This document shows positions 65 to 22,626 of a stretch of 64,000 nucleotides of DNA, piece after piece. The position numbers and the translations under genes were made by a program. Source of the stretch: a phage; the NCBI GenBank assembly GCA_036253055.1, contig GCA_036253055.1_4124.1; one strand, 5' to 3'. The notes beneath the pieces were generated by a model, which made no database searches, was not told the origin of the DNA, and saw only the letters and a program-made list of their open reading frames with translations. The number at the start of each line of letters is the position of its first letter. The stretch's first letter is position 1.

Positions 65-289
65 TTAGTTCTTTTCCTTTCTTTCTATTTGTTTCATAAG
101 AACATTGATATACTCACCCGCAAACCTATTCTGATACTGCGTCCCCATGAATTCCAACATCCATACTTCAGCAACCTTTTCTTCAATTTCAGTCCATTGT
201 AAGTACATCATAGTGAAGTAAATGGTGTTCTCTTTTTTTCTGGCACTCTTAGCACGGGCCTCGTATTCAAAGTTATTAATGATGTTCAT
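65..289 (-). CDS. small hypothetical protein, paralog family A (LGTxYQ motif)
   Basis: ORF track 74 aa; ATG 287-289; C-terminal FMGTQYQ motif shared with six upstream paralogs. Confidence 0.5.
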   Translation of the reverse strand: MNIINNFEYEARAKSARKKENTIYFTMMYLQWTEIEEKVAEVWMLEFMGTQYQNRFAGEYINVLMKQIERKEKN

Positions 290-503
290 TACATTTGTCC
301 ATTATGTAATTAGTGAGTGCAACGATGTGCTCATGAACATAGCCTTCTTGGAAGTTAGTCCCCAGTACAGCCAACATGCGAATCTCGGTGGTGTTTATCC
401 TGTGTTCCCTTATAGATAAACATTCTTTTTGTGGAAGTGTAAAATATTTGTTTATTACAGCAATGATAATTTTATTCTTCTCTATATTACTTAAATGTTT
501 CAT
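276..503 (-). CDS. small hypothetical protein, paralog family A
   Basis: 75 aa; SD AGGAG upstream of ATG 501-503; LAVLGTNFQE motif; ATGA overlap with upstream gene. Confidence 0.55.
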   Translation of the reverse strand: MKHLSNIEKNKIIIAVINKYFTLPQKECLSIREHRINTTEIRMLAVLGTNFQEGYVHEHIVALTNYIMDKCNEHH

Positions 504-715
504 AGTTTGCTCCTGACGTATTTCTCAAGAGATGACAAATACTTTTCCTCATAATACTCCTGATAGTCTGTTCCCAAGAATGCACCCAAAAGTATTTCAT
601 TTTCCAATACCTCGGCTAAGTTTAAATCAGAAGTCTCTTCGTATATTATGAGGATTTCAAGTTGTCTGGCAGCGATGCGTTCAGTATATTGATATGATTT
701 TTCTAGAATAATCAT
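500..715 (-). CDS. small hypothetical protein, paralog family A
   Basis: 71 aa; FLGTDYQEYY motif; 4-nt overlaps both sides (translational coupling). Confidence 0.55.
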   Translation of the reverse strand: MIILEKSYQYTERIAARQLEILIIYEETSDLNLAEVLENEILLGAFLGTDYQEYYEEKYLSSLEKYVRSKL

Positions 716-924
716 AGTTTACTCTTAATGTGGTTCTGAAGTGCAATAAAGTATTCTCCTACATAATACTCCTGAAAGTCTGTATCCAAAAATGCACCCA
801 TAAGTAAATCCTTCTCCATTACCCTTGATAAGTTAAGATCTGCATTTGAAAGGTATATAAGTAATATTTCAGCCTGGACAGATTTAAAACGTTTCTTATA
901 TTCTTCAGGTGTTAATATAATCAT
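712..924 (-). CDS. small hypothetical protein, paralog family A
   Basis: 70 aa; FLDTDFQEYY motif; 4-nt overlaps. Confidence 0.55.
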   Translation of the reverse strand: MIILTPEEYKKRFKSVQAEILLIYLSNADLNLSRVMEKDLLMGAFLDTDFQEYYVGEYFIALQNHIKSKL

Positions 925-1130
925 AGTTTACTCTTAATATCTTCTATTAAAAATCGAATCCAATCTTGAACATACTCTTCCTGATGGTTTGTGTTCAGTA
1001 CAGCCAACATACGGATCTCTGCTCTTGCAACTTCAATTTCAGTTTTAGGAAGGTCTTTGCTGATATCCACCATTAAGTCCATGTATTTCAAGATAAGACC
1101 GTATGATTGGGTTCGTGTTATAGTTTTCAT
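921..1130 (-). CDS. small hypothetical protein, paralog family A
   Basis: 69 aa; LAVLNTNHQEEYV motif. Confidence 0.55.
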   Translation of the reverse strand: MKTITRTQSYGLILKYMDLMVDISKDLPKTEIEVARAEIRMLAVLNTNHQEEYVQDWIRFLIEDIKSKL

Positions 1131-1327
1131 TGTTTCCTCGTGGACAAAATTTCATTTTTCAATGTATCCACATATTTCGTTACCCATGCATCCTGATAGT
1201 TAGTTCCCAATGTAATCAAAAGGTATAACTCCATTCGTTCTACGTGTGAGTCTGTATTATAAATCTTTGTGAAGTTTTTACGTAACAGTGCTTGATATTC
1301 TTTTTCGGTTAATTTACGCATTTTCAT
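1127..1327 (-). CDS. small hypothetical protein, paralog family A
   Basis: 66 aa; ITLGTNYQDAWV motif. Confidence 0.55.
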   Translation of the reverse strand: MKMRKLTEKEYQALLRKNFTKIYNTDSHVERMELYLLITLGTNYQDAWVTKYVDTLKNEILSTRKQ

Positions 1328-1521
1328 AGTTTACTCGTTACATCTTCAATTAAATACCAAATCCAATCCTTGACATACCTTTCCTGATAGTTAGTCCCAA
1401 TGAATAGTGCCATAATTAATTCACGCTTATAGGCAATACCACGGTCATGTGACTTATACATTATCATAGCCATGTTATTGATAAGTCTTTCGTGGTGTTC
1501 TGCTTGAGTTAAAATACGCAT
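1324..1521 (-). CDS. small hypothetical protein, paralog family A (first gene of 7-gene operon)
   Basis: Start moved to ATG 1519-1521 (SD AAGGGAG 6 nt upstream); track start at 1551 lies in the promoter -10 region; FIGTNYQERYV motif. Confidence 0.5.
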   Translation of the reverse strand: MRILTQAEHHERLINNMAMIMYKSHDRGIAYKRELIMALFIGTNYQERYVKDWIWYLIEDVTSKL

Positions 1522-1770
1522 AGGGACTCCCTTGAAAATAATATCAATCATATAATATATGAATTGTATAAAAAGTCAATAACATTTTATTCGTAATACC
1601 CCTTTATCGAAGTCGCTAAGGTTACCCGCCCTTTAGCCCCCTACGCATTTTGCCATAGTCCAATCCCTTTTATTTTAAAAAAGTCAAGGGATTACCTATG
1701 CATTTTTTTAACGCATTATTTTAAAAACGCCTTGACTTTTTTCTGAATCAGTACTAGATCCCTTTACGCA

Positions 1771-2966: not shown

Positions 2967-3182
2967 TTATTTACAGAACTGTAGCCCGACTGTGTTCGGA
3001 TAGTACACACATCTTTCACGCTTACCGCTAAACGCAGATATCCAGGATAATTTGTATGCCACTGGTTCCGGTGCAAGAGGATTATTTGAATAATCGAGAA
3101 CTTTAACAATTAAACGGTCCCCAACATACCAGCCAGTTGACTCTTTGATACGGTCGATAATTTCTTGTTTGGTTAACGCCAT
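2967..3182 (-). CDS. hypothetical protein
   Basis: Track start 3215 is a GTG inside the UTR hairpin; ATG 3180-3182 preferred; start uncertain. Confidence 0.4.
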   Translation of the reverse strand: MALTKQEIIDRIKESTGWYVGDRLIVKVLDYSNNPLAPEPVAYKLSWISAFSGKRERCVYYPNTVGLQFCK

Positions 3183-3399
3183 TTTATATCTCGCTCTTTT
3201 GGAGGTGGGCTGCACTATTGCCGCCCTACGAGATACATTATCTCAGTACTGATATACTTTGTCAATACTTTTTTTGAAATAGTTTTGAGTACTGGCATTA
3301 CATCCACCAGCAGATAGTTACTCACCGTTATTAACTATCTTATAGATACTTCTCTGCACCCTGTGGGCTAGTTTTTGTCTATGCGTATATAATAGCAAA

Positions 3400-3429
3400 G
3401 GGACTGACCGGAGTCAATCCCTTTTTTTT
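3400..3429 (-). terminator. hairpin plus T-run (intrinsic terminator-like), overlapping a minus-strand promoter -35
   Basis: GGGACTGAC-CGGA-GTCAATCCC then TTTTTTTT; same element at 5326-5347, 8188-8209, 12213-12232. Confidence 0.5.
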
Positions 3430-3440
3430 ATTCTTTTTTG

Positions 3441-3641
3441 TTAGATGATTCTCCAATCTTCTACCAGGATTTTAATATACCGTACCAGTGATTCGAGTGA
3501 TTCCACTTCCCGATAATCGGTAGCCGTTTGCACTGTACAAGTACAGCCGATCAAGCCATTGCCAAGCTCTTTGATCTGTACATCGATGCAGTTGGCTTTT
3601 GCTTCATTCAGTACTGCAACCAATTCGTTAGCGATTGACAT
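3441..3641 (-). CDS. hypothetical protein
   Basis: 66 aa; SD AGGAG; verified by hand translation. Confidence 0.55.
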   Translation of the reverse strand: MSIANELVAVLNEAKANCIDVQIKELGNGLIGCTCTVQTATDYREVESLESLVRYIKILVEDWRII

Positions 3642-3729
3642 AATGTTTTACTCCTAAAGGTGCGGGAGAACTATTCCCCCGCTCTATGTAAAACATTATA
3701 CATTATCTTGTAGTACTGTCAAATAGTTT

Positions 3730-3987
3730 TTATGAAATATCTTCGATATAGTCGGCCCATGTCATTTGTTCAGTACTATCTAGTGCACCAGGATTATTTG
3801 GATCAAACCATTCGCCATCCCCTAAGTACATTGCAGCCGCTACCGCTTTATAGCCATTATAGGCGTTATTCCACTGCATAGCACGATAGATACGGCCTTT
3901 GATTGGTGTCTGTACTGGTAATGTTTTATGGTCTTCTACGTAGGCCATAGCTTGAGGATTTACCCGATATTGTGTGAACTGTTCCAT
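3730..3987 (-). CDS. hypothetical protein
   Basis: Track start is the promoter TTGACA read as TTG; ATG 3985-3987 used. Confidence 0.5.
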   Translation of the reverse strand: MEQFTQYRVNPQAMAYVEDHKTLPVQTPIKGRIYRAMQWNNAYNGYKAVAAAMYLGDGEWFDPNNPGALDSTEQMTWADYIEDIS

Positions 3988-4062
3988 TATGTTTCCCCTT
4001 GTAGTTAGTAAAGTTATTACATCAGTACTATCACGCATTGTCAATAGTACTGAAATAAAACT

Positions 4063-4287
4063 TTAGATTAGATTATTGATGCCGTTGATGGTAGACTCGC
4101 TTTCTTCTTTCTCCCATTGGCGGTAATACTTCCATGCTTCATGATAGGTGGCGATCAGTTCATCTTTTTGATCCTGAGTACATGCCAGTACTGAATCACT
4201 GTAAGCGGTGTTATAGATAGAATCAAATGATTTCTTCTCTTCTGCCAGGGTAGCTACTTCCCGCATCAGTTCATCAAAGTTAGCCAT
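4063..4287 (-). CDS. hypothetical protein
   Basis: 74 aa; SD AAGGAG. Confidence 0.55.
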   Translation of the reverse strand: MANFDELMREVATLAEEKKSFDSIYNTAYSDSVLACTQDQKDELIATYHEAWKYYRQWEKEESESTINGINNLI

Positions 4288-4370
4288 TTTAGTACTCCTT
4301 ATTAGTGGGGGAGGATATCTCCCCCTATGTAAAACATTATACTTTGTTTTACTTACAATGCAAGTACTTT

Positions 4371-4562
4371 TTAAATTTTATTTCCGATATAGTCCGGCCT
4401 GTTCTTTTCGGTCATACGCTTAAGCATTTTTTGCATATGGCTTATTGCTTGTAGTGTATCCTCTTCCAGCGATGAATCAAGATAATCAGGATCATTCTTC
4501 ACCTTACAATGATTATGATAGCGTAGTACTGCCAGTACTTTTTTAACTTCTTCTACTGTCAT
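4371..4562 (-). CDS. hypothetical protein
   Basis: 63 aa; ATGA overlap with upstream gene 4559..4831. Confidence 0.5.
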   Translation of the reverse strand: MTVEEVKKVLAVLRYHNHCKVKNDPDYLDSSLEEDTLQAISHMQKMLKRMTEKNRPDYIGNKI

Positions 4563-4831
4563 AATAAGTATTCCACTTCGTTTGCTTTCAGGTTAGTATC
4601 AATCATCAGTGGTTTTTTGTAGTCCACAAAACGATTAGTTTTCTCGATAGCGAAGCCCATATAATCCAGTTTGCTTACAGTACATTCATTCTTAAAAACT
4701 TCTTTCGCTGCATTGATGGCTGATTCAATTGATAACCGCCCATCTAAATTAATGTTACCAAATGATCCACCAGCAGAAGTAGGATTACCGTTCATATCTT
4801 TAATAATCATAGTAGCGGAGTAGCTGGACAT
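4559..4831 (-). CDS. hypothetical protein
   Basis: 90 aa; SD AAAGGAAAC. Confidence 0.55.
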   Translation of the reverse strand: MSSYSATMIIKDMNGNPTSAGGSFGNINLDGRLSIESAINAAKEVFKNECTVSKLDYMGFAIEKTNRFVDYKKPLMIDTNLKANEVEYLL

Positions 4832-4915
4832 AATTTTGTTTCCTTTTATTGGTGGGGAGAGCTATTCTCCCCTTGATGTAAACTATTATACAGTACTGAT
4901 ATACTTTGTCAATAC

Positions 4916-5137
4916 TTAATTACGTTTAAAATGATATGTACCGTTATCATCCTGTACGCCCCATACTGATTTACCATCAACACCAGTGAAGCCGGATTGT
5001 AATTCAATATGGAAACCGTTAGCATCAACGACGAAAACTTTTTTATTTTCATCCCGATAGCATTGATATTCTTCACCTGCTTTAAATGCTGCATCATTCA
5101 GAAGATTTGAAGCGTGAACGCAGGTCATAGTAGTCAT
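4916..5137 (-). CDS. hypothetical protein
   Basis: Track N-terminus MFYIERGK is translated promoter/hairpin; start moved to ATG 5135-5137 (SD AAGGAA). Confidence 0.5.
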   Translation of the reverse strand: MTTMTCVHASNLLNDAAFKAGEEYQCYRDENKKVFVVDANGFHIELQSGFTGVDGKSVWGVQDDNGTYHFKRN

Positions 5138-5361
5138 CGTCTTGATTCCTTTTAGTACCAGGGAGAACCATTTCCCCCTCTCGATATAAAACATTATACG
5201 CTCATTGAGATAGTTTGCAAGTACTTTTTATAAAATAGTTTTCAGTACTGAATACTTATATAATAGATACACTTCCGCACCCTATGGGTCAGTGAGTTAT
5301 CTCTCAATGAATATATAATAGCAAAGGGACTGACTGGAGTCAATCCCTTTTTTAATCTTTT

Positions 5362-5946
5362 TTATCGTGTTATAGTTATCGCGTTAACATCACGTTTTTT
5401 ATAGTACTGATTCCAGATATTGCGGGTTAAACCGTAATCAAGTACTTTAATCAAGCCGTTGCGATCCTGGCCGATATTCTGTTTTCTGATATCTCTTATC
5501 GTTAGTGTGGATAATGTATCATCAACGTGATTGAGAGCATCAGCGAAATGGTGATGGCGTTCTACCGTATTACGTTTAATATTGTACTTTAACTCATTGC
5601 ACGCGTTTACATGCTTTACACTGCCTTTGCTTGCAGTACTCAAACGATCCATAACAATAAACAGATTATCAGGATCGCATAAATGCATATGCACTTTAGC
5701 AAAGTACTGTTTAAGGTGCGGACGGTCATAATCTAAAAAATTCCATACCTTACATTCAGTTTCATTTTGTTCTACACCCGCATCACAATTCGCGACCTTA
5801 ATCACTAACCGATCATTTAAAGCGAATACAATACGGGAAGAACCCGCACCGACGATCTCCAGTCCAGCTAACCGACAAGCTGAAAGGATCTCTTTGTTGG
5901 TTTCCATTGCATGAAGTGAACGGATGAATTTAGTATAGTTACGCAT
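5362..5946 (-). CDS. protein kinase-like protein (Ser/Thr kinase fold)
   Basis: Gly-rich loop GAGSSRIVFA, VIKV lysine, catalytic-loop-like DIRKQN, DYG (DFG-like); start moved to ATG 5944-5946 (SD AAGGAG); track start was TTG. Confidence 0.6.
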   Translation of the reverse strand: MRNYTKFIRSLHAMETNKEILSACRLAGLEIVGAGSSRIVFALNDRLVIKVANCDAGVEQNETECKVWNFLDYDRPHLKQYFAKVHMHLCDPDNLFIVMDRLSTASKGSVKHVNACNELKYNIKRNTVERHHHFADALNHVDDTLSTLTIRDIRKQNIGQDRNGLIKVLDYGLTRNIWNQYYKKRDVNAITITR

Positions 5947-5977
5947 TGTGTTGACTCCTTGAGTTAATGAAACTATA

Positions 5978-6220
5978 TTACAGTACTTTACTATCAATGG
6001 CAACTACTTTTTTTACTTGAACTGCGTGGAATACTTCACTCGTATTTTTAGTACTGAATACTTTTGCCGTACCTTGTTCGACCGCAATACGATAGCGACC
6101 GTTAACGTCCACCATATTGATAAAGTCCGGTGTACTGAATGGAGTTACCCGGCATTTAAGAACGGTTAACAGTTCCACCAGCGTTGTAGTCTCTTTGATA
6201 CGTTTTTCTAAAGTAATCAT
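5978..6220 (-). CDS. hypothetical protein
   Basis: Track start is promoter TTGACA read as TTG; ATG 6218-6220 used. Confidence 0.45.
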   Translation of the reverse strand: MITLEKRIKETTTLVELLTVLKCRVTPFSTPDFINMVDVNGRYRIAVEQGTAKVFSTKNTSEVFHAVQVKKVVAIDSKVL

Positions 6221-6273
6221 TTTGTTTTCCCCGTGTTGGTATGCATTCATAGTACTAAAACATTTGAGTACTG

Positions 6274-6528
6274 TCAACGTGATATTAGTTTTATTTTTTT
6301 ATTGTATTGTTGGTGTTCATATAGATTAATTTTTCCAGTACTCTCGATCACTATTCTATTGTTAGTGTCTACATCGATAACACGTAGTTTCCCGTTGCTT
6401 AACTTCCTGGGTAATAGACTACCATTAATAAACTCATTAGCAAGCTGTACGGCCTTTGTGATGATTCTCTGTGGGGCTTTATAGTGTACCCGTAATACAT
6501 TATCGTTTGATAGTTGAACCTTAATCAT
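6274..6528 (-). CDS. hypothetical protein
   Basis: 84 aa; ATG 6526-6528. Confidence 0.5.
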   Translation of the reverse strand: MIKVQLSNDNVLRVHYKAPQRIITKAVQLANEFINGSLLPRKLSNGKLRVIDVDTNNRIVIESTGKINLYEHQQYNKKIKLISR

Positions 6529-6590
6529 TTTGTTTATCCTATAAAAAAGGCGGGAACTATTCCCGCCGTGTTGTTAGTACTGCAAAGTTA

Positions 6591-6986
6591 TTAGATAACC
6601 TGGCGGCGTTTACTGTATACTGTTACACGGTTTCCTTTACGGTCATGACGAATCTCTTTCTGGTTACGAATCAGTTCACTTGGACGCTTAAGGTTTGCCA
6701 GGTGATCCGCGTGAGTCCATGCATTTGCGTTAACTGTAACTTCAATATCAGAACCTTTCAAAAAGTCATCTTGAGCGTTCAGTACTTCAGCCAGTTCTTG
6801 AGCTTTCTTCAGTTCTGCTTCAGTAAGTACTGGTTCAGGTGAATTCACAATATCAGAGATCTCTTTGAACTGTACCGCCCAGCGTTGTCCTTTCGGTGCA
6901 TCTTTGCCCATGTCTTTAAATGTTTCACCTTCTTCACGGGCAACGATGCGAGCTTGTTCACGGGTAGCGAAGAATTTAGTAATCAT
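6591..6986 (-). CDS. hypothetical protein, paralog of 19008..19274
   Basis: Shares FATREQARIVAR..GxTFKDMG..RWAV and C-terminal HDRKGNRVTVYS with 19008..19274; start uncertain (6995 or 6986). Confidence 0.5.
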   Translation of the reverse strand: MITKFFATREQARIVAREEGETFKDMGKDAPKGQRWAVQFKEISDIVNSPEPVLTEAELKKAQELAEVLNAQDDFLKGSDIEVTVNANAWTHADHLANLKRPSELIRNQKEIRHDRKGNRVTVYSKRRQVI

Positions 6987-7085
6987 GGTGTACATCCTAT
7001 TAGTTAAGTTAATTAGTACTACAAGTTAGAGTCTATTATAAAGTACTATCTGGGCAATGTCAAATAGTACTTTAAATGGATTCTA

Positions 7086-7409
7086 TTACATGTCTTTCTT
7101 ACGTTTTACATCGTAGTAACGAACTGTAATTTCTTTGTTGATCTCTTCCTCGATGCGGTGAATAACTTTTTCTTTCGGGTTGAAACCTATTACAGTTTCT
7201 TTAATGATCTCCAAGCCCGTGTATTCGCCTTGTGTACCGTAACCGTAAGTAAAGGTTTCATGTCCCAGGTCTTCCCAGCGGTCACCAATCAATGCAGACA
7301 CGTAGCATGAGTGGTAAGTATTGCCGTGGCTATCAGTCCACCGATTAACTTTAATGTCAAAGGAGGTTACAATTTTCAATTCGACTTTCTGGGTAAGGAT
7401 CATAGTCAT
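7086..7409 (-). CDS. hypothetical protein, paralog of 14147..14470
   Basis: Shares WTDSxGNTYHSC..FTYGY motif with 14147..14470. Confidence 0.55.
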   Translation of the reverse strand: MTMILTQKVELKIVTSFDIKVNRWTDSHGNTYHSCYVSALIGDRWEDLGHETFTYGYGTQGEYTGLEIIKETVIGFNPKEKVIHRIEEEINKEITVRYYDVKRKKDM

Positions 7410-7496
7410 TTTAATTTCTCTCTTTTTGTTAGGAGGGGAACCATTCCCCTCACTTGATGTAAACTATTATACAGTACTAAGATACTTTGTCAATAC

Positions 7497-7631
7497 TTAT
7501 TTGTTTTCTTTTCGTAATTTCTTTTCAGCTTCAACTACATTACGATTTGTGCAAACCACTTCATCGGATAAATCTAACTTCCAGCCAGCCAGGGGATTGG
7601 TTGCTTTTTTAGTGTTGTTTGCTGCTTTCAT
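7497..7631 (-). CDS. small basic protein (44 aa), paralog of 13042..13188
   Basis: Not in track (<60 aa); hand-translated MKAANNTKKATNPLAGW...; SD AAGGAAAC; promoter module upstream. Confidence 0.45.
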   Translation of the reverse strand: MKAANNTKKATNPLAGWKLDLSDEVVCTNRNVVEAEKKLRKENK

Positions 7632-7698
7632 GATGTTTCCTTATTAATTAAGATGTAAACTATTATACAGTACTAAAAACTATTGTCAAACTATTTTA

Positions 7699-7899
7699 TC
7701 AAATTGTTTCCCATTTCATGTTACCCGCTTTACGCTGTGCAACAGGAATAAACATGTTATTAATGTTACTAATATAACCGACCTGTAAGTCACGCTGTGA
7801 ACCATACGCCCGACTTGCTGCATTTTTAGCACCGCGTTCTGATTTATAAACGCCGCTGGATACTGTAAATCCTACTACACCGAAAGTAAAATGTTTCAT
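7699..7899 (-). CDS. hypothetical protein
   Basis: 66 aa; SD GAGGAA. Confidence 0.5.
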   Translation of the reverse strand: MKHFTFGVVGFTVSSGVYKSERGAKNAASRAYGSQRDLQVGYISNINNMFIPVAQRKAGNMKWETI

Positions 7900-8223
7900 T
7901 TTGTATTCCTCTTTGTGGTTGATGTAAGTATTATACTCGTTTACTTGGTATTGTCAAACTATTTTATCAGGGGAGGTTTTCGTATGTCTTACTCCTGGAC
8001 TACTTAACGGGGAGTTACTTGTTTCGTTCCCCGTCCTGATGTAAAACATTATACGCTTATCATGATACTTTGCAAGTACTTTTTAAAAAATAGTTTTCAG
8101 TACTTGATAGTACTAGCCACCAGCATATAATAGATACATTTATGCACCCTGTGGGTTAGATTGTTTCTGTGCATATATAATAGCAAAGGGACTGACCGGA
8201 GTCAATCCCTTTTTTAAATCTTT

Positions 8224-8373
8224 TTAAACTTGTTTTGGGTTGCGATATGTGATAGCGTTCGGGTACATTTGTTTAATGTTATTCCATGCCTGGTTAACAT
8301 TGTAACCACTTGATCGAATCAGTTGGTTACTACCGACACCTTGAAACACTACTTCAAATAAGAATTCTTTCAT
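8224..8373 (-). CDS. small hypothetical protein (49 aa)
   Basis: Not in track; hand-translated; SD GAGGTGA; ATGA overlap with 8370..8543. Confidence 0.4.
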   Translation of the reverse strand: MKEFLFEVVFQGVGSNQLIRSSGYNVNQAWNNIKQMYPNAITYRNPKQV

Positions 8374-8543
8374 GCTTTCACCTCGCTATCTGCTTTGCCT
8401 TTACGCCAGGCCGTTGCTAATTGTTCGCGTTGCCATAAGTCGAGTGATACGTAAAGTTTTGCATTATCACCCTTCGGATATTCGCCAGTAGTACCAATCC
8501 GATAAAACAGATCTTTCAGTACTGATAATTCTACTTGGATCAT
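8370..8543 (-). CDS. small hypothetical protein (57 aa)
   Basis: Not in track; SD AGGAG; stop overlaps next start. Confidence 0.45.
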   Translation of the reverse strand: MIQVELSVLKDLFYRIGTTGEYPKGDNAKLYVSLDLWQREQLATAWRKGKADSEVKA

Positions 8544-8632
8544 TGTATTACTCCTGATTGTGTTAGTACTTCTACGATGGCATGAATGATCATAAGTACA
8601 GCTAACACAACAATCATCGGATTCATTTGCAT
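8540..8632 (-). CDS. hydrophobic micro-protein (30 aa, single TM)
   Basis: Hand-translated MQMNPMIVVLAVLMIIHAIVEVL...; SD AGGAG 8 nt upstream; coupled to downstream gene. Confidence 0.35.
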   Translation of the reverse strand: MQMNPMIVVLAVLMIIHAIVEVLTQSGVIQ

Positions 8633-8649
8633 AAGCTGTACTCCTTCTA

Positions 8650-8862
8650 TTAATCTTTCAGCCAATGATCTTGAATGAATTTTTCACAGAATCCCTGTTT
8701 CATAGATTCTAACAGGCGTTCACGGTGAGCGGCGGCATATTGCTCAGTACTATGCGTTACGCCAGGTTGATAACGTGAAACACCGTCCGGTCCGATATAT
8801 TGAACATCCCACGGTTTTTCGTTAGTATCAGACCATTTACGAACGATTAGTTGACCTTGCAT
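8650..8862 (-). CDS. hypothetical protein
   Basis: 70 aa; SD GAGGAAA; promoter and hairpin 8880-8939. Confidence 0.55.
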   Translation of the reverse strand: MQGQLIVRKWSDTNEKPWDVQYIGPDGVSRYQPGVTHSTEQYAAAHRERLLESMKQGFCEKFIQDHWLKD

Positions 8863-8879
8863 GTTTCTTTCCTCTTAGT

Positions 8880-8899
8880 GGGGAGAATCATTTCTCCCC
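8880..8899 (-). promoter_or_regulatory. conserved 5'UTR hairpin (GGGGAGAA-loop-TTCTCCCC) between promoter and SD
   Basis: Perfect 8-bp inverted repeat; recurs with small variations downstream of most early promoters. Confidence 0.55.
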
Positions 8900-8911
8900 T
8901 TCATGTAAACT

Positions 8912-8939
8912 ATTATACAGTACTAGATTACATTGTCAA
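8912..8939 (-). promoter_or_regulatory. sigma70-like early promoter (TTGACA, 16 nt, TG-extended TATAAT)
   Basis: Minus strand TTGACA..CAGTACTGTATAAT; one of about 40 near-identical modules in the window. Confidence 0.6.
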
Positions 8940-8945
8940 TAGTTT

Positions 8946-9269
8946 TTATTCACCTTGTTTGAATTTAGTTTTCTCCATTGATTCCATGATTGCAACCAAT
9001 ACAGCATGGATCTCACTTAACGCGGCATCACTAAAAGCATTAATGAATAGGCAATCATTCTCGCGAATATTTTTAATGTACTTATCAGCAGTGGTTGCGA
9101 ATTCATTCAACGGCAGATCAAATGCTTTATCCCATAATGGATGGCGTAACTGTAACAGTACTGGATTATCACGGTCACCAGGTGAGAAAGTGCCTGTAAT
9201 GAAACATACACCAGGGATACTTTCGAATTGACAACGAACTTCTTTTGTGATAGTAGTATGAATATACAT
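8946..9269 (-). CDS. hypothetical protein
   Basis: 107 aa; SD GAGGA. Confidence 0.5.
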   Translation of the reverse strand: MYIHTTITKEVRCQFESIPGVCFITGTFSPGDRDNPVLLQLRHPLWDKAFDLPLNEFATTADKYIKNIRENDCLFINAFSDAALSEIHAVLVAIMESMEKTKFKQGE

Positions 9270-9296
9270 TTATTTTTATCCTCTATTAAATTAATA

Positions 9297-9485
9297 TTAC
9301 AGTTTATGAATCAATTCTTTATCTAAGCGATAGCGAACATTATTGATTGTAACTGCATTGTTTTTAATGCTACGCTGTACAGGTCCACCAGCAATAACAA
9401 ACGTTGCCTTATTGCCCCGAACGATGATAGCACTTCCAGGATTACCAAAATCATCTTGTACTAAAATACTTGATAAGTTTTGCAT
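9297..9485 (-). CDS. hypothetical protein
   Basis: 62 aa; SD AAGGAAAG; promoter and hairpin 9503-9561. Confidence 0.5.
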   Translation of the reverse strand: MQNLSSILVQDDFGNPGSAIIVRGNKATFVIAGGPVQRSIKNNAVTINNVRYRLDKELIHKL

Positions 9486-9533
9486 TTGTCTTTCCTTGTA
9501 GTGGGGAGAACTATTCTCCCCTTCATGTAAACT

Positions 9534-9561
9534 ATTATACAGTACTTAAAACTAAATGCAA
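9534..9561 (-). promoter_or_regulatory. sigma70-like early promoter (TTGCAT, 16 nt, TATAAT) for gene 9297..9485
   Basis: Minus strand TTGCAT-N16-TATAAT; UTR hairpin GGGGAGAACTATTCTCCCC at 9503-9521. Confidence 0.6.
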
Positions 9562-9564
9562 GTA

Positions 9565-9921
9565 CTAGGATAAAATCATTATAGGATATTCACAGTTAAT
9601 CAGTACTTCAAAACCAAAACTTTCATACCATTCTTTAAGATTAAACTCGTTATCTTCTCCCGTATCGCATTCTAAGATGATACAATCTGAATCATCGGCG
9701 GCATCAATAAAGGCATTCATTAATTCAGTACCTTCACCGTTACCGCGATTATCGGGATCAACATAAAGAGAATCAATAAACGCTACACGATCATAATCAA
9801 GATCCGGTGCAACAATGCCACGTTTAACAAACCAGTACTGCAATTGTGCTACTTTGCCTTGTACTTGATAGCCAGTGATCTCACCATTGTCTGTAGTACG
9901 CGTGATATGTTGTATACCCAT
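9565..9921 (-). CDS. GNAT-family N-acetyltransferase-like protein
   Basis: Motif-A-like DNRGNGEGTELMNAFIDAA; 118 aa; SD GAGGA. Confidence 0.5.
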   Translation of the reverse strand: MGIQHITRTTDNGEITGYQVQGKVAQLQYWFVKRGIVAPDLDYDRVAFIDSLYVDPDNRGNGEGTELMNAFIDAADDSDCIILECDTGEDNEFNLKEWYESFGFEVLINCEYPIMILS

Positions 9922-9984
9922 GATTTCAATCCTCAGTTAAGATATAAAATATTATACACTAACTAACAGCACTGTCAATACTTT

Positions 9985-10242
9985 TTATCTCATAGATCTA
10001 TGCCAACAATTACGGGGATTGCGTTTGAATATGCTATCATGATCAGCCTGGCAAGTGATGCAGTACTTACACCCCTTAACGGCCAGGCGGCGATTCTCAG
10101 GGATTTTATCGCCGCAGTCGAGGCAATGTATCAGTGATTCTATTTGTGCGTTAATTTGCGTTCTAGCGTGGTTTACAGCGGCCTGAATCACTGCGTTAAT
10201 CTCGTCTTGCTCGGCCCCGTCATTCGCGAATCCAACAGCCAT
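9985..10242 (-). CDS. TraR/DksA-family C4 zinc-finger protein
   Basis: CLDCGDKIPENRRLAVKGCKYCITCQ fits the TraR/DksA C4 zinc-finger pattern. Confidence 0.6.
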   Translation of the reverse strand: MAVGFANDGAEQDEINAVIQAAVNHARTQINAQIESLIHCLDCGDKIPENRRLAVKGCKYCITCQADHDSIFKRNPRNCWHRSMR

Positions 10243-10405
10243 TATTTTAACCTCATTATAAAAATACTATAGTACTGTAATGCTACAATAATACTACTAG
10301 TACTGATTTTATTCAAACCGTATGATACTACATATTCCCCAGCATTACCACGAATGGTAACGCCTTTGTACTTTCTATATAATTTCAACTACGTTTATTG
10401 CCTTT

Positions 10406-10476
10406 GATCAAGATTTGATCAGAATTATACGCCTTATGCTAAATTGATCCAGTACTTTTTTGATCATTTATTGATC
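10406..10476. promoter_or_regulatory. cluster of five TTGATC (GATC) sites in 71 bp
   Basis: GATC at 10406, 10417, 10446, 10462, 10473, each preceded by TT. Confidence 0.45.
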
Positions 10477-10571
10477 GATATTATATAGTTACATTTGTGC
10501 ACCCTATGGGTTAGTGACGTTCTCGTCTTGATGTAAGTATTATGCCAGTACTGGCATAATTTGTCAATAGA

Positions 10572-10769
10572 TTATTTTAACTTTTTTCTGTCATTGATTA
10601 ATGCTTTCAGTACTATACTAATGATCTGCAATGATTCATCAATGACTATAAAATTATTTTCTTTCATTAGATGATAGTTACCATTGATTGTATATTCTAA
10701 GGAGTACTGTTTACGTTTAATTTTTGATAATGTTTCTATTTGTTTTTGTACTGATTTCATGCTAATCAT
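10572..10769 (-). CDS. hypothetical protein
   Basis: 65 aa ORF. Confidence 0.45.
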   Translation of the reverse strand: MISMKSVQKQIETLSKIKRKQYSLEYTINGNYHLMKENNFIVIDESLQIISIVLKALINDRKKLK

Positions 10770-10874
10770 TGTTAAACGTCCTGTAACGCATTCTAACGAG
10801 TTAAACGGTTTAGTACTGGCATTGTATAGGGTAAAGGATTAAAGCCCACCAGCGTTAACCAGTGGGCTATAATC

Positions 10875-11018
10875 TTACATCTTGCGGATAATCTTAACAG
10901 TATCTTTCACCGATTTACCGTCTTGCTGACATTGTTCGATCATCGCGTATTGTTCTGCGGTCAGATCCTCGCCAGTTTTTGCCAGTACTGCGTCGATGAA
11001 TGAATCCAGTGCGATCAT
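10875..11018 (-). CDS. small hypothetical protein (47 aa)
   Basis: Not in track; hand-translated MIALDSFIDAVLAKTGEDL... Confidence 0.4.
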   Translation of the reverse strand: MIALDSFIDAVLAKTGEDLTAEQYAMIEQCQQDGKSVKDTVKIIRKM

Positions 11019-11117
11019 TTTGTTTCTCTCTTAGGTTAAGTTAACTACTGTTTATAAAACTTATTATACAGTACTATCAAACTATGTCAATATCTTTAAT
11101 AGTACTGGTAATATATT

Positions 11118-11297
11118 TTAGCGGTAGTCGTCGTATGCTTTATTCACCTGGCGAATGTAACTTTCAAAGGCTTCGTCTACCGTTTCATACTCCCGAACAT
11201 AATCACCATAGGAAACTACATACATCCCTTTTTGATCTTCAAACGTCATGATGATAGAATCCAGGCCGATGATTTCAGTTTTTGCGATAATAGCCAT
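11118..11297 (-). CDS. small hypothetical protein (59 aa)
   Basis: Not in track (59 aa); SD AAGGAA; hand-translated MAIIAKTEIIG... Confidence 0.45.
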   Translation of the reverse strand: MAIIAKTEIIGLDSIIMTFEDQKGMYVVSYGDYVREYETVDEAFESYIRQVNKAYDDYR

Positions 11298-11380
11298 TTT
11301 AGTATTCCTTAGTAGTGTAGTTGATAAAAGTTATTATGCCAGTACTATCAATCATTGTCAATAGTACTGTGATAATATTT

Positions 11381-11593
11381 TTAGTTAATGATAGTCAGTG
11401 TAAAATTGTAATCCCCTGCCTGGTATAGTACTTTGTCGCCGAATGTACCAACACGTTTCATATTGCAATAGATACCCATAACACTTTTTACATCTTTGAT
11501 ATTCCGAACGCCTGTGATATCCTTGTTGAAATTTTCATGTTCAGAAAATAAAACTTGTTTTGCATTTTTCAGTACAGTGCAGATATTAGCCAT
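11381..11593 (-). CDS. hypothetical protein
   Basis: 70 aa. Confidence 0.5.
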   Translation of the reverse strand: MANICTVLKNAKQVLFSEHENFNKDITGVRNIKDVKSVMGIYCNMKRVGTFGDKVLYQAGDYNFTLTIIN

Positions 11594-11686
11594 TTTGATT
11601 TCTCTCTGTTTGTGGGGAGAACTATTCTCCCCTTGATGTAACTTATTATACAGTACTATAATCTATTGTCAAACTATTTTTTAATA

Positions 11687-12028
11687 TTATTCAAAATCTT
11701 CTGGACCGGACTGATAATCATCTTCACCGTATGCACTTTCTAACTTCTCGCCAGTGTGATCATCAGTTAGTGAGTCATCCTCATAGTTCACGTCTACGCC
11801 TACAATGTAAAACTGGCTATCGTCTGGATCATTGAAATTAATTTTCTGAATGTTTACAATAACGGTATTGATGCCCAGGACACCGCCATCAGCAGTTACA
11901 AAGTACTGATATTTTTCACAACCGCCTGAATTGAAACCGTAATTAATTTCGGCCCGACCATCATTTAAACGCAGTGCCTGGGCGATGATTTCATTTTCAA
12001 AGTTAGATTGAGCAATTGAGATAGTCAT
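11687..12028 (-). CDS. highly acidic hypothetical protein (candidate DNA mimic)
   Basis: 113 aa; D/E-rich C-terminus DDSLTDDHTGEKLESAYGEDDYQSGPEDFE; SD AAGGAAAC. Confidence 0.5.
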   Translation of the reverse strand: MTISIAQSNFENEIIAQALRLNDGRAEINYGFNSGGCEKYQYFVTADGGVLGINTVIVNIQKINFNDPDDSQFYIVGVDVNYEDDSLTDDHTGEKLESAYGEDDYQSGPEDFE

Positions 12029-12238
12029 GATTTGTTTCCTTATTACCAGGGGAAACCGTTTCCCCTTTCGATGTAAAACATTATACGCTTATTGAGATAG
12101 TTTGCAAGTACTTTTTAAAAATAGTTTTCAGTACTCAAACATTATATAATAGATACACTTATGCACCCTGTGGGCTAGTGAGCTATCTCTCAATGAATAT
12201 ATAATAGCAAAATGGCTGACCGGAGTCAACCACTTTTT

Positions 12239-12382
12239 TCATTTATTTTTAGCTTTTAGAATCGCCGCCTTTCGCGTCATGCCTTGCTTGATGTATTCCT
12301 GTACTTTCGCTTTACGTGCATTCGCTTTATTTGCTTTCGTAAACGCCGAACAACTTTTATAATTTAAGCCTGTTGGATTCAT
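12239..12382 (-). CDS. small basic protein (47 aa)
   Basis: Not in track; K/A-rich; hand-translated. Confidence 0.35.
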   Translation of the reverse strand: MNPTGLNYKSCSAFTKANKANARKAKVQEYIKQGMTRKAAILKAKNK

Positions 12383-12472
12383 TTAAATCACCATAAAGAA
12401 TAGATAGGTTACTAACAATGCCGCGATCAATGCACCGACCAGGGCCGAACTATAGTAAGCTAATGATTTCAT
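12383..12472 (-). CDS. hydrophobic micro-protein (29 aa, single TM)
   Basis: Hand-translated MKSLAYYSSALVGALIAALLVTYLFFMVI; ATGA overlap with upstream gene. Confidence 0.3.
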   Translation of the reverse strand: MKSLAYYSSALVGALIAALLVTYLFFMVI

Positions 12473-12621
12473 TTTTTAGCCTGAAAGTAATGTTTAATTT
12501 GTGCGGCGGTCAGTGCACAATTACGCAGGAAGTTTTCTGTATAACTGCGGCGAGTACTGAAAGAGAATTGACCTTTGCCGTTACCGATAGTAACATCAAA
12601 CCGAGCGTTGTATTGTTTCAT
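12469..12621 (-). CDS. small hypothetical protein
   Basis: Start moved to ATG 12619-12621; track N-terminus is translated UTR hairpin. Confidence 0.45.
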   Translation of the reverse strand: MKQYNARFDVTIGNGKGQFSFSTRRSYTENFLRNCALTAAQIKHYFQAKK

Positions 12622-12707
12622 TTTGATTCTCCTGTTATTGGGGAGAACCATTTCTCCCCTCTATGTAAAACATTATACGCGTTTAAAAACTAATTGCAAG
12701 TATTATT

Positions 12708-12959
12708 TTAAACTTTGTATTTTAAACTTTGTGCGACTAATTTCGCACGGTCAATCATATTCTGCCATTTTTGGATCTCTTCTGGTAGAAAACGATATTC
12801 ACCAATTACAATAGTGATACACTGGTCAGCCTTGTCGATGTATGTGGTATCAATCTCTACTTGAACGGGTACACGTTCGCCGTACTCAGTCCCTGGGATA
12901 ATGCAATCATTATCATAAGTTACAGTAGTAGCAGTGTCTTTGATTAAAATTGTTTCCAT
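12708..12959 (-). CDS. hypothetical protein
   Basis: 83 aa; SD GAGGAAAG. Confidence 0.55.
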   Translation of the reverse strand: METILIKDTATTVTYDNDCIIPGTEYGERVPVQVEIDTTYIDKADQCITIVIGEYRFLPEEIQKWQNMIDRAKLVAQSLKYKV

Positions 12960-13041
12960 TATACTTTCCTCGTTAGGTGTAAGGGGAACGTTTTCCCCTT
13001 CATGTAAACTATTATACAGTACTAAAAACTAATTGCAAGTA

Positions 13042-13188
13042 CTATTTTTTAGATTTACGCAAACTTTCTACCATCTCAGGAGTAAGGCCAGGCGGGTAGG
13101 AAACCACTTCATCAACGAAACGTAAAGGGAATACCCCAGCGAAAGGTGAACGTGCTTTCTTAGTATTACTCTTTTTTGATGCTTTCAT
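13042..13188 (-). CDS. small basic protein (48 aa), paralog of 7497..7631
   Basis: Not in track; hand-translated MKASKKSNTKKARSPFAGV...; shares MKA..N.KKA..P.AG N-terminus with 7497..7631. Confidence 0.45.
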   Translation of the reverse strand: MKASKKSNTKKARSPFAGVFPLRFVDEVVSYPPGLTPEMVESLRKSKK

Positions 13189-13257
13189 TTCATATTCCTT
13201 AATTAGTGGGGAGAATCATTTCTCCCCTTCATGTAAAACATTATACGCGTTTAAAAA

Positions 13258-13467
13258 CTAATTGCAAGTACTATTTGAAAGTAAATGCTCATACGCTGCA
13301 TTAACTACGTTTTCAATAACCGACTGTACAGAAAGATCCCCCACGTCCTGGCTATAGTAGAAATCGCTTACAGTGGTGTCATCGTATGCAAATACTTTAC
13401 CAGGTACTGCATCAATCACATACATATTAACCTTTAAGATGTCGATCTTATCCTGTACAGTAAGCAT
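13258..13467 (-). CDS. hypothetical protein
   Basis: 69 aa; 5-nt gap from upstream gene. Confidence 0.5.
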   Translation of the reverse strand: MLTVQDKIDILKVNMYVIDAVPGKVFAYDDTTVSDFYYSQDVGDLSVQSVIENVVNAAYEHLLSNSTCN

Positions 13468-13472
13468 ATTAA

Positions 13473-13745
13473 TTAACCTTTTAAGTACTGGCTTAAGTAG
13501 TCTTGTTGATCTTCGGTGATTGCAGCCATCTTCCCTAGTACTGGATTGATGATATAATCCCCTGTAACGTCCTGTAACGCATTCTCAGGCGGTTTAACGG
13601 CTGGGGTAGCCATAGCCATTGCCTGGACTTGTTCGACGCTGTAACGCTCATAAAGGCGGCATTCTTCCGGTGTTAACATAGCATCAGTACGCTTCATCGG
13701 TTTAATGATGCTTTCGATCTCATTCAGTACTTGATTAACGTTCAT
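13473..13745 (-). CDS. hypothetical protein
   Basis: 90 aa; SD GGGGA. Confidence 0.5.
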   Translation of the reverse strand: MNVNQVLNEIESIIKPMKRTDAMLTPEECRLYERYSVEQVQAMAMATPAVKPPENALQDVTGDYIINPVLGKMAAITEDQQDYLSQYLKG

Positions 13746-13796
13746 GGTATAATCCCCAATATAAGCGGCCTAAATCGACCGCTAACGATGTTTTGA

Positions 13797-14066
13797 TTAA
13801 TAGGTGTATGGTTGACGCTCAAACAATGAATAGACGTTATACGCCCCGCTTATGGGCTTCGCTGGTAAATCAATTTTATATTGTTCACGCTTAAAGATAA
13901 TAAAACGGCAATTGTTTTTAACATCAAAATTGATTGAACGTTCCAGGAGTTTACCATCGTGCACAAATACAAGATAACCGCTTGGTACTTGTTTTGTAGA
14001 ACTGGTTGCAACCATAGACCGACGAACATGTGTACCTGCATCGATTAAAGTACTGATATTTTTCAT
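13797..14066 (-). CDS. hypothetical protein
   Basis: 89 aa; SD AGAGGA. Confidence 0.5.
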   Translation of the reverse strand: MKNISTLIDAGTHVRRSMVATSSTKQVPSGYLVFVHDGKLLERSINFDVKNNCRFIIFKREQYKIDLPAKPISGAYNVYSLFERQPYTY

Positions 14067-14146
14067 TTTACTATCCTCTTAAGTTGATTTAATTTCTTTC
14101 TCCTATGCAGACACTATATCAAAGTATCTGCATAAAGTAAAGCTAA

Positions 14147-14470
14147 TTAAAGATCTTTTTTGCGTTTAACATTCTGTACAGTACAATGCAACGGGATATT
14201 AAGATCATTGCACAAACGATAGAGGGAGGTTTCAACAGTATCAAGCCCGTCTACTGATTCCTTTAAGAGTGATACCGCCGTTTGTTGATATGCATCCTCA
14301 TAGCCATAAGTAAATGATTCAACCGCCAGATCATTCAAGCCGTTATCCAGTTCAACGCTTACATGACAAGAATGATAAGTATTGCCATATGAATCAGTCC
14401 AACGTTTACCGTCAACATTGATTGCATGGATTGCAGCCAGGGAAACGGTGTTGATGATAGTTTTAGCCAT
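14147..14470 (-). CDS. hypothetical protein, paralog of 7086..7409
   Basis: WTDSYGNTYHSC..FTYGY motif; SD AAGGAA. Confidence 0.55.
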   Translation of the reverse strand: MAKTIINTVSLAAIHAINVDGKRWTDSYGNTYHSCHVSVELDNGLNDLAVESFTYGYEDAYQQTAVSLLKESVDGLDTVETSLYRLCNDLNIPLHCTVQNVKRKKDL

Positions 14471-14561
14471 TTTAGTATTCCTTAAATTAATATGTGTCGT
14501 CTTGATAAAATCTATTATGCCAGTACTATCAAACTATGTCAATAGTACTGTGATAATATTT

Positions 14562-14774
14562 TTACTTACTTTCTTTCGCTGCTTTATATGTTGCCACTGC
14601 CATAACCACATCAGCACGAACAAAGTTTTTAACCGTGTCACTGTAATAATTGATCGCATCATCTATATCTGCGAACGTCCGATACATACCGCACCAAGAT
14701 ACTTTATAACCTTCTTTCACTTCTACCAGTTTAACGATAGTCTTGTTAACTTTGATTTTAGTAATGATAGCCAT
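14562..14774 (-). CDS. hypothetical protein
   Basis: Start moved to ATG 14772-14774; track N-terminus is translated UTR hairpin. Confidence 0.5.
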   Translation of the reverse strand: MAIITKIKVNKTIVKLVEVKEGYKVSWCGMYRTFADIDDAINYYSDTVKNFVRADVVMAVATYKAAKESK

Positions 14775-14861
14775 TTTAGTTTCCTCATTATCAGGGAGAA
14801 CCATTTCTCCCCTTGATGTAATGTATTATACTTTATTCGATTTACTTTGCAAGTACTTTTT

Positions 14862-15089
14862 TTAATTTAATTCATCCAGGCAAAGGATACGCTCAACGCC
14901 CAAATCAGTTAAACTAATCGACGGCACTTGATAGGTTTCAATGTATGCTACACTTGCCCACTGACCGAACTCATTAACGGCCCAGGTATTCATTGCATTT
15001 TGCAATTCCGCACCTGCCTTGTTAGTAATGACTGCAACTACTTGTTCGTTGCCAGTAGTACCAGATACGCGAGTAATGATAATAGCCAT
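14862..15089 (-). CDS. hypothetical protein
   Basis: Track N-terminus MFYIERGK is translated promoter; start moved to ATG 15087-15089. Confidence 0.5.
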   Translation of the reverse strand: MAIIITRVSGTTGNEQVVAVITNKAGAELQNAMNTWAVNEFGQWASVAYIETYQVPSISLTDLGVERILCLDELN

Positions 15090-15319: not shown

Positions 15320-15350
15320 CAGACACAAAAAAGCCCACTGTTTAAGGTGG
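15320..15350 (-). terminator. rho-independent terminator after gene 15375..15857
   Basis: Minus strand AGCCCACC-loop-GGTGGGCT followed by TTTTTTGTGT. Confidence 0.6.
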
Positions 15351-15374
15351 GCTAGTGATTCAGTACTTTAATTG

Positions 15375-22625: not shown

Positions 22626-22626
22626 A

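Follow-up and report, generated by a model that had tools for sequence, protein, structure and literature searches.

Given a short sequence that recurs just past the early promoters of a phage, the question arises whether it acts as a DNA site or as part of the RNA, and what it might do there. We addressed this question in a 64,000-nucleotide (nt) stretch of phage DNA (GenBank assembly GCA_036253055.1, contig GCA_036253055.1_4124.1; hereafter the window), in which a preliminary description made from the letters alone had noted a conserved 16-nt element in at least nine copies. We find that this motif is the core hairpin of a previously undescribed leader module of about 50 nt that comprises two hairpins, and that this module occurs only in the terminal repeat of the Rak2-like jumbo phages.

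A search of the window with the pattern GCACCCTRTGGGYTAG, allowing up to 2 mismatches, recovered 8 matches against 0.07 expected, and none of 100 shuffles reached 8; the element is thus more frequent than in a shuffled control. The pattern matches start at 3356, 5277, 8144, 10499, 12163 and 18934 on the + strand and lie at 16561-16576 and 20685-20700 on the - strand, the positions listed for these eight in the preliminary description being right to within 1-3 nt. Read in the sense direction the motif is CTARCCCAYAGGGTGC. A covariance model of the module, run over the 64 kb with filters off, recovered all eight matches, a further copy at 20452-20501(+) that had been overlooked (core ATACCCCAGGGGGTGG at 20470-20485; 22.4 bits, E=1.8e-4), and a weak one at 20515-20566(-). 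The last contains GCACCCTAGCAGG at 20531-20543, which had been listed as a variant copy; it is indeed present, as a decayed convergent twin of the 20452 unit, and it scores only weakly (15.7 bits, E=0.03). The rest of the window yielded no further module with this model, the next best match having E=0.28. The window total is accordingly nine solid copies and one degenerate copy, all within 3.3-20.7 kb.

By megablast the window falls with the Asteriusvirus jumbo phages of E. coli, which have genomes of ~350 kb (121Q, PBECO4, JP4, fEgEco12) and form part of the Rak2-like clade. The physical ends of fEgEco12 and its direct terminal repeat of 20,993 base pairs (bp) have been set by PhageTerm and restriction mapping (PMC13070987), and its positions 1-2804 align to window 21,789-18,999 with 93% identity. 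Because fEgEco12 position 1, the experimentally mapped left end, aligns there, the left genome end maps to about window position 21,789. All motif copies fall inside the resulting terminal-repeat homologue, an early-gene region of ~21 kb spanning 1600-21789, whose inner border at ~1,600 is extrapolated from the alignment. This region carries small genes, nearly all on the - strand, so oriented that transcription leads away from the genome end.

To define the phyletic spread of the element we scanned IMG/VR with the exact pattern and retrieved 24 kb from the start of the records for fENko-Kae01, Serratia BF, Yersinia fHe-Yen9-04, Xanthomonas XbC2 and fEgEco12. The true matches in IMG/VR come from 121Q, RaK2, GAP32, CBB and four uncultivated ~350-kb contigs, and in each genome they cluster within ~21 kb or less. 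Matches outside the Rak2-like contigs (in L005, L007, L008, L010-L012, L015, L016, L018, L020, L022, L024-L026, L028, L030 and L032-L036) were rejected as chance 16-mers in coding DNA with no surrounding module context. The covariance model recovered 110 copies (101 distinct) in ~300 kb of Rak2-like sequence; the motif is thus present in related phage genomes, where the preliminary description had proposed to look for it. The phages that bear it span at least six host genera, the module being kept across CBB, GAP32, RaK2, fENko-Kae01, Serratia BF, Yersinia fHe-Yen9-04 and Xanthomonas XbC2. Each terminal repeat holds 9-12 copies: fEgEco12 has 10 between 1,083 and 19,594 and none onward to 24,000, and every one of the 10 in fENko-Kae01 lies within its annotated 19,736-bp repeat. 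The covariance model found no copy in the more distant Pseudomonas phage PA5oct. Searching the whole window against Rfam 15 at the gathering threshold gave 0 matches, and in E-value mode the segments 16480-16680 and 3000-21500 gave scattered chance matches far below threshold, none of them on the module. In the searchable literature the motif is not printed in this context, and the CBB, fEgEco12 and Sharanji papers contain no description of it.

Examination of the copies revealed a consistent anatomy. The module starts ~4-12 nt past the start site of a strong sigma70-type early promoter subclass, with a leader of 3-8 nt, usually CAU..., before the first hairpin (HP1). HP1, found in ~70% of copies, has a stem of 3-5 bp closed by a loop of 6-8 nt that is rich in purines (GAGAAA, GCGAAA, AGAUAA, AGAACAA or GGAACAAA); in short-form copies its stem is gone, a GAAACAA-like tract is retained and the first 11 nt are unpaired. 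A junction of 3 nt, usually CUA, leads to the second hairpin (HP2), which is the motif proper and consists of R-CCC, a loop and GGG-U (R, purine; Y, pyrimidine). The loop has either 3 nt (ACA, AUA, ACC and others) or 4 nt (UAUA, UAGA and others), the downstream register remaining unchanged. HP2 is followed by a tail of G (99%), C (81%; G in XbC2), five purines, U (95%) and the box V-Y-R-Y-C-Y-R-U, several positions of which are free to vary, by transitions only.

Covariation in HP1 was measured on sequences anchored by the loop only, which avoids selection for pairing. Its inner three pairs are paired in all 26 distinct sequences, with 11-13 double changes per pair, and the covariation score of 0.887 compares with 0.22+/-0.04 for shuffled sequences (0 of 500 reach it) and with 0.06-0.17 when the partner is slid. 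HP2 is paired in 98.8% of cells across the 101 distinct copies, the closing pair being A-U in 72 and G-U in 25. Its stem is near-invariant, with one copy in which a pair is broken and three independent compensatory C-G to U-A changes (L040 4183-4232, L039 4521-4571 and L004 6356-6405); these give ACUC..GAGU in XbC2 and ACCU..AGGU in fHe-Yen9-04 and contig L004, and sister copies in the same genomes retain CCC/GGG. The covariance analysis of copies with their flanks that the preliminary description had called for thus uncovers a covarying HP1 stem and compensatory changes in HP2. The flank pairings that it had suggested, AGAUA/UAUCU and CACU/AGUG, did not hold up as stated; AGAUA forms the loop of HP1, the stem being UGAG/CUCA. 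We likewise rejected a pairing of the 5' leader with the box downstream, as native and swapped flanks differed only marginally (z=-1.7, p=0.046), and mutual information detected no long-range covariation in the module alignment. A possible alternative hairpin, GGGUG:YRYCY, which would be mutually exclusive with HP2, is wobble-compatible in 97.2% of cells against 31-70% when slid. It is more stable than HP2 in only 12 of the 101 copies and usually weaker; its extension displays no true covariation, and one compensated copy breaks the pairing.

The covariation of HP1, the compensation in single copies of HP2, the variable loop, the G-U closing pair and the co-orientation with promoters together point to a structure in the sense transcript; on the opposite strand the closing G-U of HP2 would be a C-A mismatch. 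Between the two options of the preliminary description, a recurring leader RNA or a DNA site, the evidence therefore favours RNA, and its view of a transcribed leader element that is sense-oriented and separate from the sigma70 hexamers stands. Sequence alone cannot separate the RNA hairpin from one formed by the non-template strand of the DNA, of the kind seen at ops, because the two have the same sense. We also rejected a tiny leader peptide starting at an AUG or GUG in the box, as more than half of the copies have C there, and an intrinsic terminator, as HP2 is without a U tract, the next 8 nt being purine-rich with a mean of 1.5 U.

In the window, a sigma70-like promoter on the same strand stands before every copy, its -10 box 16-25 nt upstream, and all copies are read in the sense of that promoter, as had been claimed from the first. 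Of the 101 distinct copies, 81% have a promoter scoring at least 10/12 within 49 nt upstream, compared with 2.3% of random positions in the same loci. Of the 49 promoters that score at least 10/12 in 22 kb, 41 lie on the - strand. The motif leader follows eight of the 49, and the ninth copy stands behind a weaker-scoring promoter. In the ~20-kb terminal repeat of this phage and its relatives the module is found behind roughly one strong early promoter in five. In four of the nine solid window units, those with TTGACT-17-TATTAT promoters, the -35 box sits inside the terminator hairpin of the preceding gene (hairpins 3424-3397, 5350-5323, 8212-8185 and 12236-12209), and these four terminator-plus-promoter units are near-identical across ~150 bp. 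One window unit, 16508-16636(+), has an inverted orientation, reading into the upstream gene's terminator. Motif units account for five of the eight good - strand terminators within 1-20 kb.

The individual units of the window illustrate this arrangement. Short forms on the - strand occupy 3340-3378 (core 3356-3371, without HP1; 38.8 bits, E=8e-10), with the promoter at 3417-3389 and a second promoter at 3265-3237, and 8128-8172 (core 8144-8159; 39.5 bits), with the promoter at 8205-8177 and a P2 promoter at 8075-8048. The remaining - strand modules have an HP1: 5261-5310 (UGAG-agauaa-CUCA; core 5277-5292; 43.9 bits; promoter 5343-5315, P2 promoter 5220-5193), 10483-10532 (GACG-agaa-CGUC; core 10499-10514; 47.9 bits; promoter TTGACA-17-CATAAT at 10567-10539), 12147-12196 (UGAG-agauag-CUCA; core 12163-12178; 40.6 bits; promoter 12229-12201, P2 promoter 12107-12080) and 18918-18968 (GCC-ggacacaa-GGC; core 18934-18949; 33.6 bits; promoter 19001-18973, P2 promoter 18886-18859). 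On the + strand the best-scoring module of the window, 16543-16592 (GAC-gagaua-GUC; core 16561-16576; 53.8 bits), follows a promoter at 16508-16536, opposes the neighbouring genes and runs into a two-way terminator hairpin at 16615-16636; it would yield an RNA of ~90-100 nt and looks like a small-RNA gene. The variant module at 20452-20501 (CGC-gagaaa-GCG; promoter TTGACT-16-TATAAT at 20418-20445) and the module at 20667-20716 (AGUC-gagaaa-GACU; core 20685-20700; 48.7 bits; promoter TTGCTT-16-TATAAT at 20633-20660, with a promoter at 20758 next) are also on the + strand, and these end-proximal units point outward, to the terminus.

What, then, do the units serve? We classed the downstream context for 104 distinct contexts, and a first pass gave 34 twins, 21 promoters, 10 terminators, 5 open reading frames (ORFs) and 34 with none of these; most of the last class hold a AGTACTTGCA-N16/17-TATAAT promoter under the first-pass threshold. 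In about half of the units, therefore, a second promoter comes next, which has an A/T-rich tract upstream of it and drives the following gene; about one third are half of a convergent pair. Some 15% run into a hairpin terminator, often antisense to their neighbours, as stand-alone units of ~90-100 nt with the layout promoter, module, AGUACUG, hairpin terminator (e.g. window 16543-16636), which is conserved in L002, L003, L006, L031 and L037. About 5% lead straight into a gene, which encodes a conserved ~170-residue protein without a known domain, annotated as a virion structural protein in several relatives. The convergent twins have gaps between module ends of 13 nt (10 pairs), 24 nt (2) or 31 nt (5), and the 20452/20515 gap fits the 13-nt class of intact twins elsewhere. 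In CBB, BF, fHe-Yen9-04 and XbC2 they are found again at two places, ~1.0 and 3.7-4.2 kb from the left end, and in fENko-Kae01 at the first of these only (L019 986-1098 and 3796-3908; L038 975-1104 and 3692-3804; L039 283-414 and 3286-3399; L040 948-1060 and 4119-4232; L037 979-1110). The centre between the two modules of a twin is A/T-rich. As most units are without a gene of their own, the RNA head, or the act of transcribing it, would appear to be the product.

A possible function is suggested by what lies downstream of HP2, where at fixed distances the copies have G (99%), Y (100%) and R (100%). In hairpin-stabilised pauses of the his-leader type, a hairpin ~11-12 nt from the RNA 3' end is combined with G at -10, Y at -1 and G at +1. 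HP2 would leave RNA polymerase as a small nascent hairpin with its last base 11 nt upstream of the Y-R step, placing G at -10, Y at -1 and R at +1, so that HP2 and the tail would together have the layout of such a pause. We propose, with a probability of roughly 0.4, that the module is a cis-acting promoter-proximal signal that pauses or reprograms the host RNA polymerase in the manner of nut, put and ops. It would act in cis on the polymerase that has just transcribed it, and the paused complex would be a loading point for an elongation or termination factor, as at those sites, or alternatively a barrier where operons adjoin and close to the genome end. In a twin with a 13-nt gap the two active sites would lie ~29 bp apart, about the distance of two polymerases head to head. 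Such a barrier would explain why units stand on or face terminators, precede a second promoter and form head-on pairs at fixed spacing, and the near-invariant sequence of HP2 implies base-specific recognition by a protein or by the polymerase.

Several observations weigh against this proposal, which draws on position and sequence pattern. The proposed +1 base is G in just 42% of copies, where the E. coli consensus prefers G, and the proposed -11 position is U, not G. With 4 bp and a 3-nt loop, HP2 is smaller than one would expect of a classical pause hairpin, and HP1 is missing in ~30% of copies. Wobble pairing with GGGUG is another possible reading of the purines and pyrimidines in the box. 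Neither a boxA nor an ops sequence is present in the 110 leaders, and no NusG/RfaH homologue was found in the Rak2-like phages by tblastn with an RfaH query that matched Salmonella RfaH at 87-88% identity. The 56 ORFs of the terminal repeat, scanned against Pfam and PHROGs, include no known antiterminator or RNA-binding domain.

Comparison with known systems places the module as a phage early-leader RNA signal of the nut/put/ops kind that is a member of no named family. Like the lambdoid nut sites (boxA plus boxB, bound by N) and the put sites of HK022, it is a short structured RNA past an early promoter and before terminators, and the action in cis on the transcribing host polymerase is a feature that we propose for it as well. 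The stem of HP1, free to covary, and its purine-rich loop (GAGAAA/GCGAAA) may be akin to boxB and its GNRA-like loop, and the two adjacent stem-loops recall put. However, boxB has a 5-bp stem with a pentaloop, whereas HP1, which only ~70% of copies possess, has a covarying stem of 3-5 bp and a loop of 6-8 nt that is not the same. The variable hairpin also precedes the invariant element, the reverse of the order in nut. HP2 has a stem of 4 bp, invariant in sequence, and a loop of 3-4 nt, and each genome carries 9-12 copies, convergent pairs among them, instead of 2. In the 110 leader regions the only near-matches to boxA (CGCTCTTA / GCTCTTTAACAA-like) are the promoters' own GCTATTAT -10 boxes. 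A perfect 12-mer of the E. coli rrn boxA, GCTCTTTAACAA, occurs at 57,919-57,930(+) (~0.01 expected), opposite to the local genes and probably by chance. No N-type antiterminator emerged from the Pfam and PHROGs scans of the 56 ORFs, N proteins being too short and divergent for homology search. The put RNA, unlike the module, measures ~70 nt and has much longer stems.

With ops, the recruitment site of RfaH, the module shares an invariant element of 12-13 nt in a transcribed leader, orientation dependence, a variable distance from the promoter and a tiny hairpin, and possibly also a terminal U-G pause step at which a factor is recruited to the paused complex. Its sequence is nevertheless unrelated to that of ops, GGCGGTAGNNTG, which matches 0 of 110 leaders with up to 2 mismatches, and the adjoining HP1 is too large for a hairpin in the non-template strand. 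The class I pauses of the his and trp leaders have their hairpin end 11 nt from the 3' end, G at -10 and Y-R at -1/+1, a spacing and base pattern that the module would fit with HP2 as a nascent hairpin. Its hairpin is smaller, however, and its +1 position, as noted above, is often not G; moreover, the known cases are single attenuator parts tied to the translation of a leader peptide and not multi-copy promoter-proximal elements.

The main rival to a polymerase signal is a trans-acting small RNA or decoy, a reading that we consider rather unlikely. On this account 9-12 strong promoters per repeat would flood the cell with short HP1-HP2 RNAs from the moment that the first DNA arrives. These RNAs would mimic or titrate whatever a host protein (a nuclease, a chaperone or a defence sensor) targets, or would base-pair with a host RNA. 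The stand-alone units that make up ~15% of the total, often antisense to flanking genes, and the twins without a gene would suit such a role, as would the multiple copies with an invariant core in DNA presumed to be the first to enter the cell. There is also a precedent in PA5oct, a distant relative, in which two abundant non-coding RNAs are produced from the terminal repeat (PMC7318152), though these do not match our covariance model. Against this reading, about half of the units reach the next promoter and gene with no terminator in between, and for these no defined short product is predicted; the invariant bases, too, belong to a stem and not to an accessible seed.

Less likely is a role in RNA processing or stability, for which we see little likelihood: HP1 and HP2 would shield the 5' end, or HP2 would be the hairpin recognised by a sequence-specific endoribonuclease, trimming leaders or separating read-through transcripts at operon borders, with the duplexes of twins cut by RNase III. 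The hairpins do lie 4-12 nt from the 5' end, the units are placed at operon junctions, twins would fold into stems of at least 13 bp, and the other early promoter class also opens with a 5' hairpin, GGGGAGAA..UUCUCCCC. However, plain 5' protection requires structure and not an invariant sequence, the short-form copies begin with 11 unpaired nt, and no nuclease domain was detected among the terminal-repeat ORFs with Pfam and PHROGs. The RNase III sites of T7 are likewise repeated structured RNAs between early genes, made by the host polymerase at the first-entering genome end, but they are hairpins of ~60 nt with an internal loop; a single module falls far short of the ~20 bp duplex that RNase III needs, which only twins would provide.

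A double-stranded DNA operator, at which a protein bound to ACCC-N3-GGGT just past the start site would switch promoters off or on, is also less likely and in our view improbable. The core is partly palindromic and invariant in sequence across genera, its position, +10 to +35, is a classic one for a roadblock, and the sites are found as inverted pairs. Yet the half-site spacer is either 3 or 4 bp without other change, which disfavours a rigid dimer on double-stranded DNA, and the flanks are asymmetric and strictly oriented with transcription. In 25% of copies G stands where symmetry needs A, a base that pairs (G-U) in the sense RNA only. Individual copies have acquired compensatory double changes, the sister copies of that genome still being CCC/GGG, and the element is joined to a hairpin with a covarying stem. 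The features of the element thus do not fit a palindromic operator bound by a dimer.

A purely recombinational, PeSL-like role is less likely still, and we regard it as very improbable. The PeSL papers of 2010 and 2014 reportedly define the element by terminator and promoter only. If the repeats persisted as recombination points that shuffle small early genes, in the form of a mobile terminator-promoter cassette, the motif would be a passenger. The four near-identical composites of the window, which flank small variable ORFs, and the indels between units by which relatives differ would be in line with this. The PeSLs of T4-like phages are described as a terminator stem-loop and a sigma70-type early promoter repeated between small variable early genes, which agrees with this picture (PMC4122927), and the upstream half of four of the nine solid window units fits that composite definition. 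The conserved, covarying part here, in contrast, is the transcribed leader after the promoter, which is found also behind promoters free of terminators. Recombination requires homology and neither a covarying hairpin nor a 13-mer invariant across genera, and the Rak2-like genera that have the module share only about a third of their proteins (PMC5259590). Finally, a phage-specific promoter element, the motif being a -35 substitute for a modified polymerase with a TATAAT-like -10 ~13-16 nt downstream, is hardly credible despite the TATTATA or TATAAT-like strings after several window copies, because the positions needed for the -10 hexamer, such as its would-be final T, are not conserved (93-101 copies, entropy 1.3-1.7 bits), changes in loop length would move the spacing, and nothing downstream needs such a promoter.

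Most of the other early promoters (~25) belong to a second leader class, with a hairpin GGGGAGAA-uaG-UUCUCCCC at ~+8 followed by a ribosome-binding site. Examples are seen at 12072-12050(-), 4880-4860(-) and 11640-11620(-), within window 1,600-21,800, and GGGAA-N2-4-TTCCC occurs 14 times in the terminal repeat against 0 in the remaining 42 kb. A further repeated sequence is AGTACT (often CAGTACTG), with 267 occurrences in the 64 kb where base composition predicts ~22; it is found in the terminal repeat and also beyond it (e.g. 16522-16529, 20425-20430 and 21110-21117). It is placed just 5' of -10 boxes (AGTACTGGCATAAT, AGTACTGTATAAT), and in the second promoter class it is joined to the -35 (AGTACTTGCA). 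It resembles a promoter-associated or factor-binding site.

Among the 56 ORFs of the terminal repeat, Pfam and PHROGs identify a DksA/TraR-type zinc finger, a GNAT acetyltransferase and a protein-kinase-like domain on ORFs at 9,985-10,242(-), 9,565-9,921(-) and 5,362-5,946(-). Factors of the DksA/TraR type bind the secondary channel of RNA polymerase. One ORF, reported by Pfam in a per-family summary without its position, bears a ParE-like toxin domain, and the other domains are domains of unknown function only. A tandem array of seven paralogous ORFs of ~70 residues (phrog_4148) lies at 65-1551(-), and a run of small paralogous ORFs of ~60 residues at 22,045-24,011(-), just past the terminus homologue. 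The sign of the GC skew flips at ~22 kb although the ORFs there remain on the - strand. Farther in, nine to ten ORFs of ~340-430 residues, possibly a paralogous family, stand in a row at 26,191-37,931(+). A scan of the window for tRNA and tmRNA gave no match. Adjoining the mapped left genome end is a 1.7-kb non-coding stretch (20,112-21,789) dense in short repeats, namely GGGGAACTATC four times (a half-site of the class-2 leader hairpin), TAGCCGTC / GCCGTTTAGCCGTC and CCAGAC, together with outward-pointing promoters; it may have a role in packaging, end protection or replication.

The Rak2-like jumbo phages (121Q, PBECO4, RaK2, GAP32, CBB and many therapy candidates) depend on the host RNA polymerase, and to our knowledge almost nothing is known of how they control the earliest phase, the first minutes after infection. 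In their ~20-kb terminal repeats, where annotations list rows of hypothetical genes, a regulatory grammar can now be discerned, with two early promoter classes, each with its own leader, one of which is a conserved structured RNA. The module is a candidate new family for RNA databases. Judging from the letters, it is possible, if somewhat doubtful, that it represents a new class of promoter-proximal RNA signal, either for programming polymerase (by a hairpin-locked pause that would serve factor loading, antitermination or head-on barriers near the genome end) or as the shared head of abundant immediate-early decoy RNAs that would neutralise a host factor. The 13-nt invariant hairpin offers a testable handle for finding a partner factor and for mapping operon borders, and may aid the engineering or attenuation of early expression in therapeutic jumbo phages. 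Were either the polymerase signal or the decoy to prove true, the module would constitute a regulatory layer specific to the Rak2-like terminal repeat, the DNA presumed to enter the cell first.

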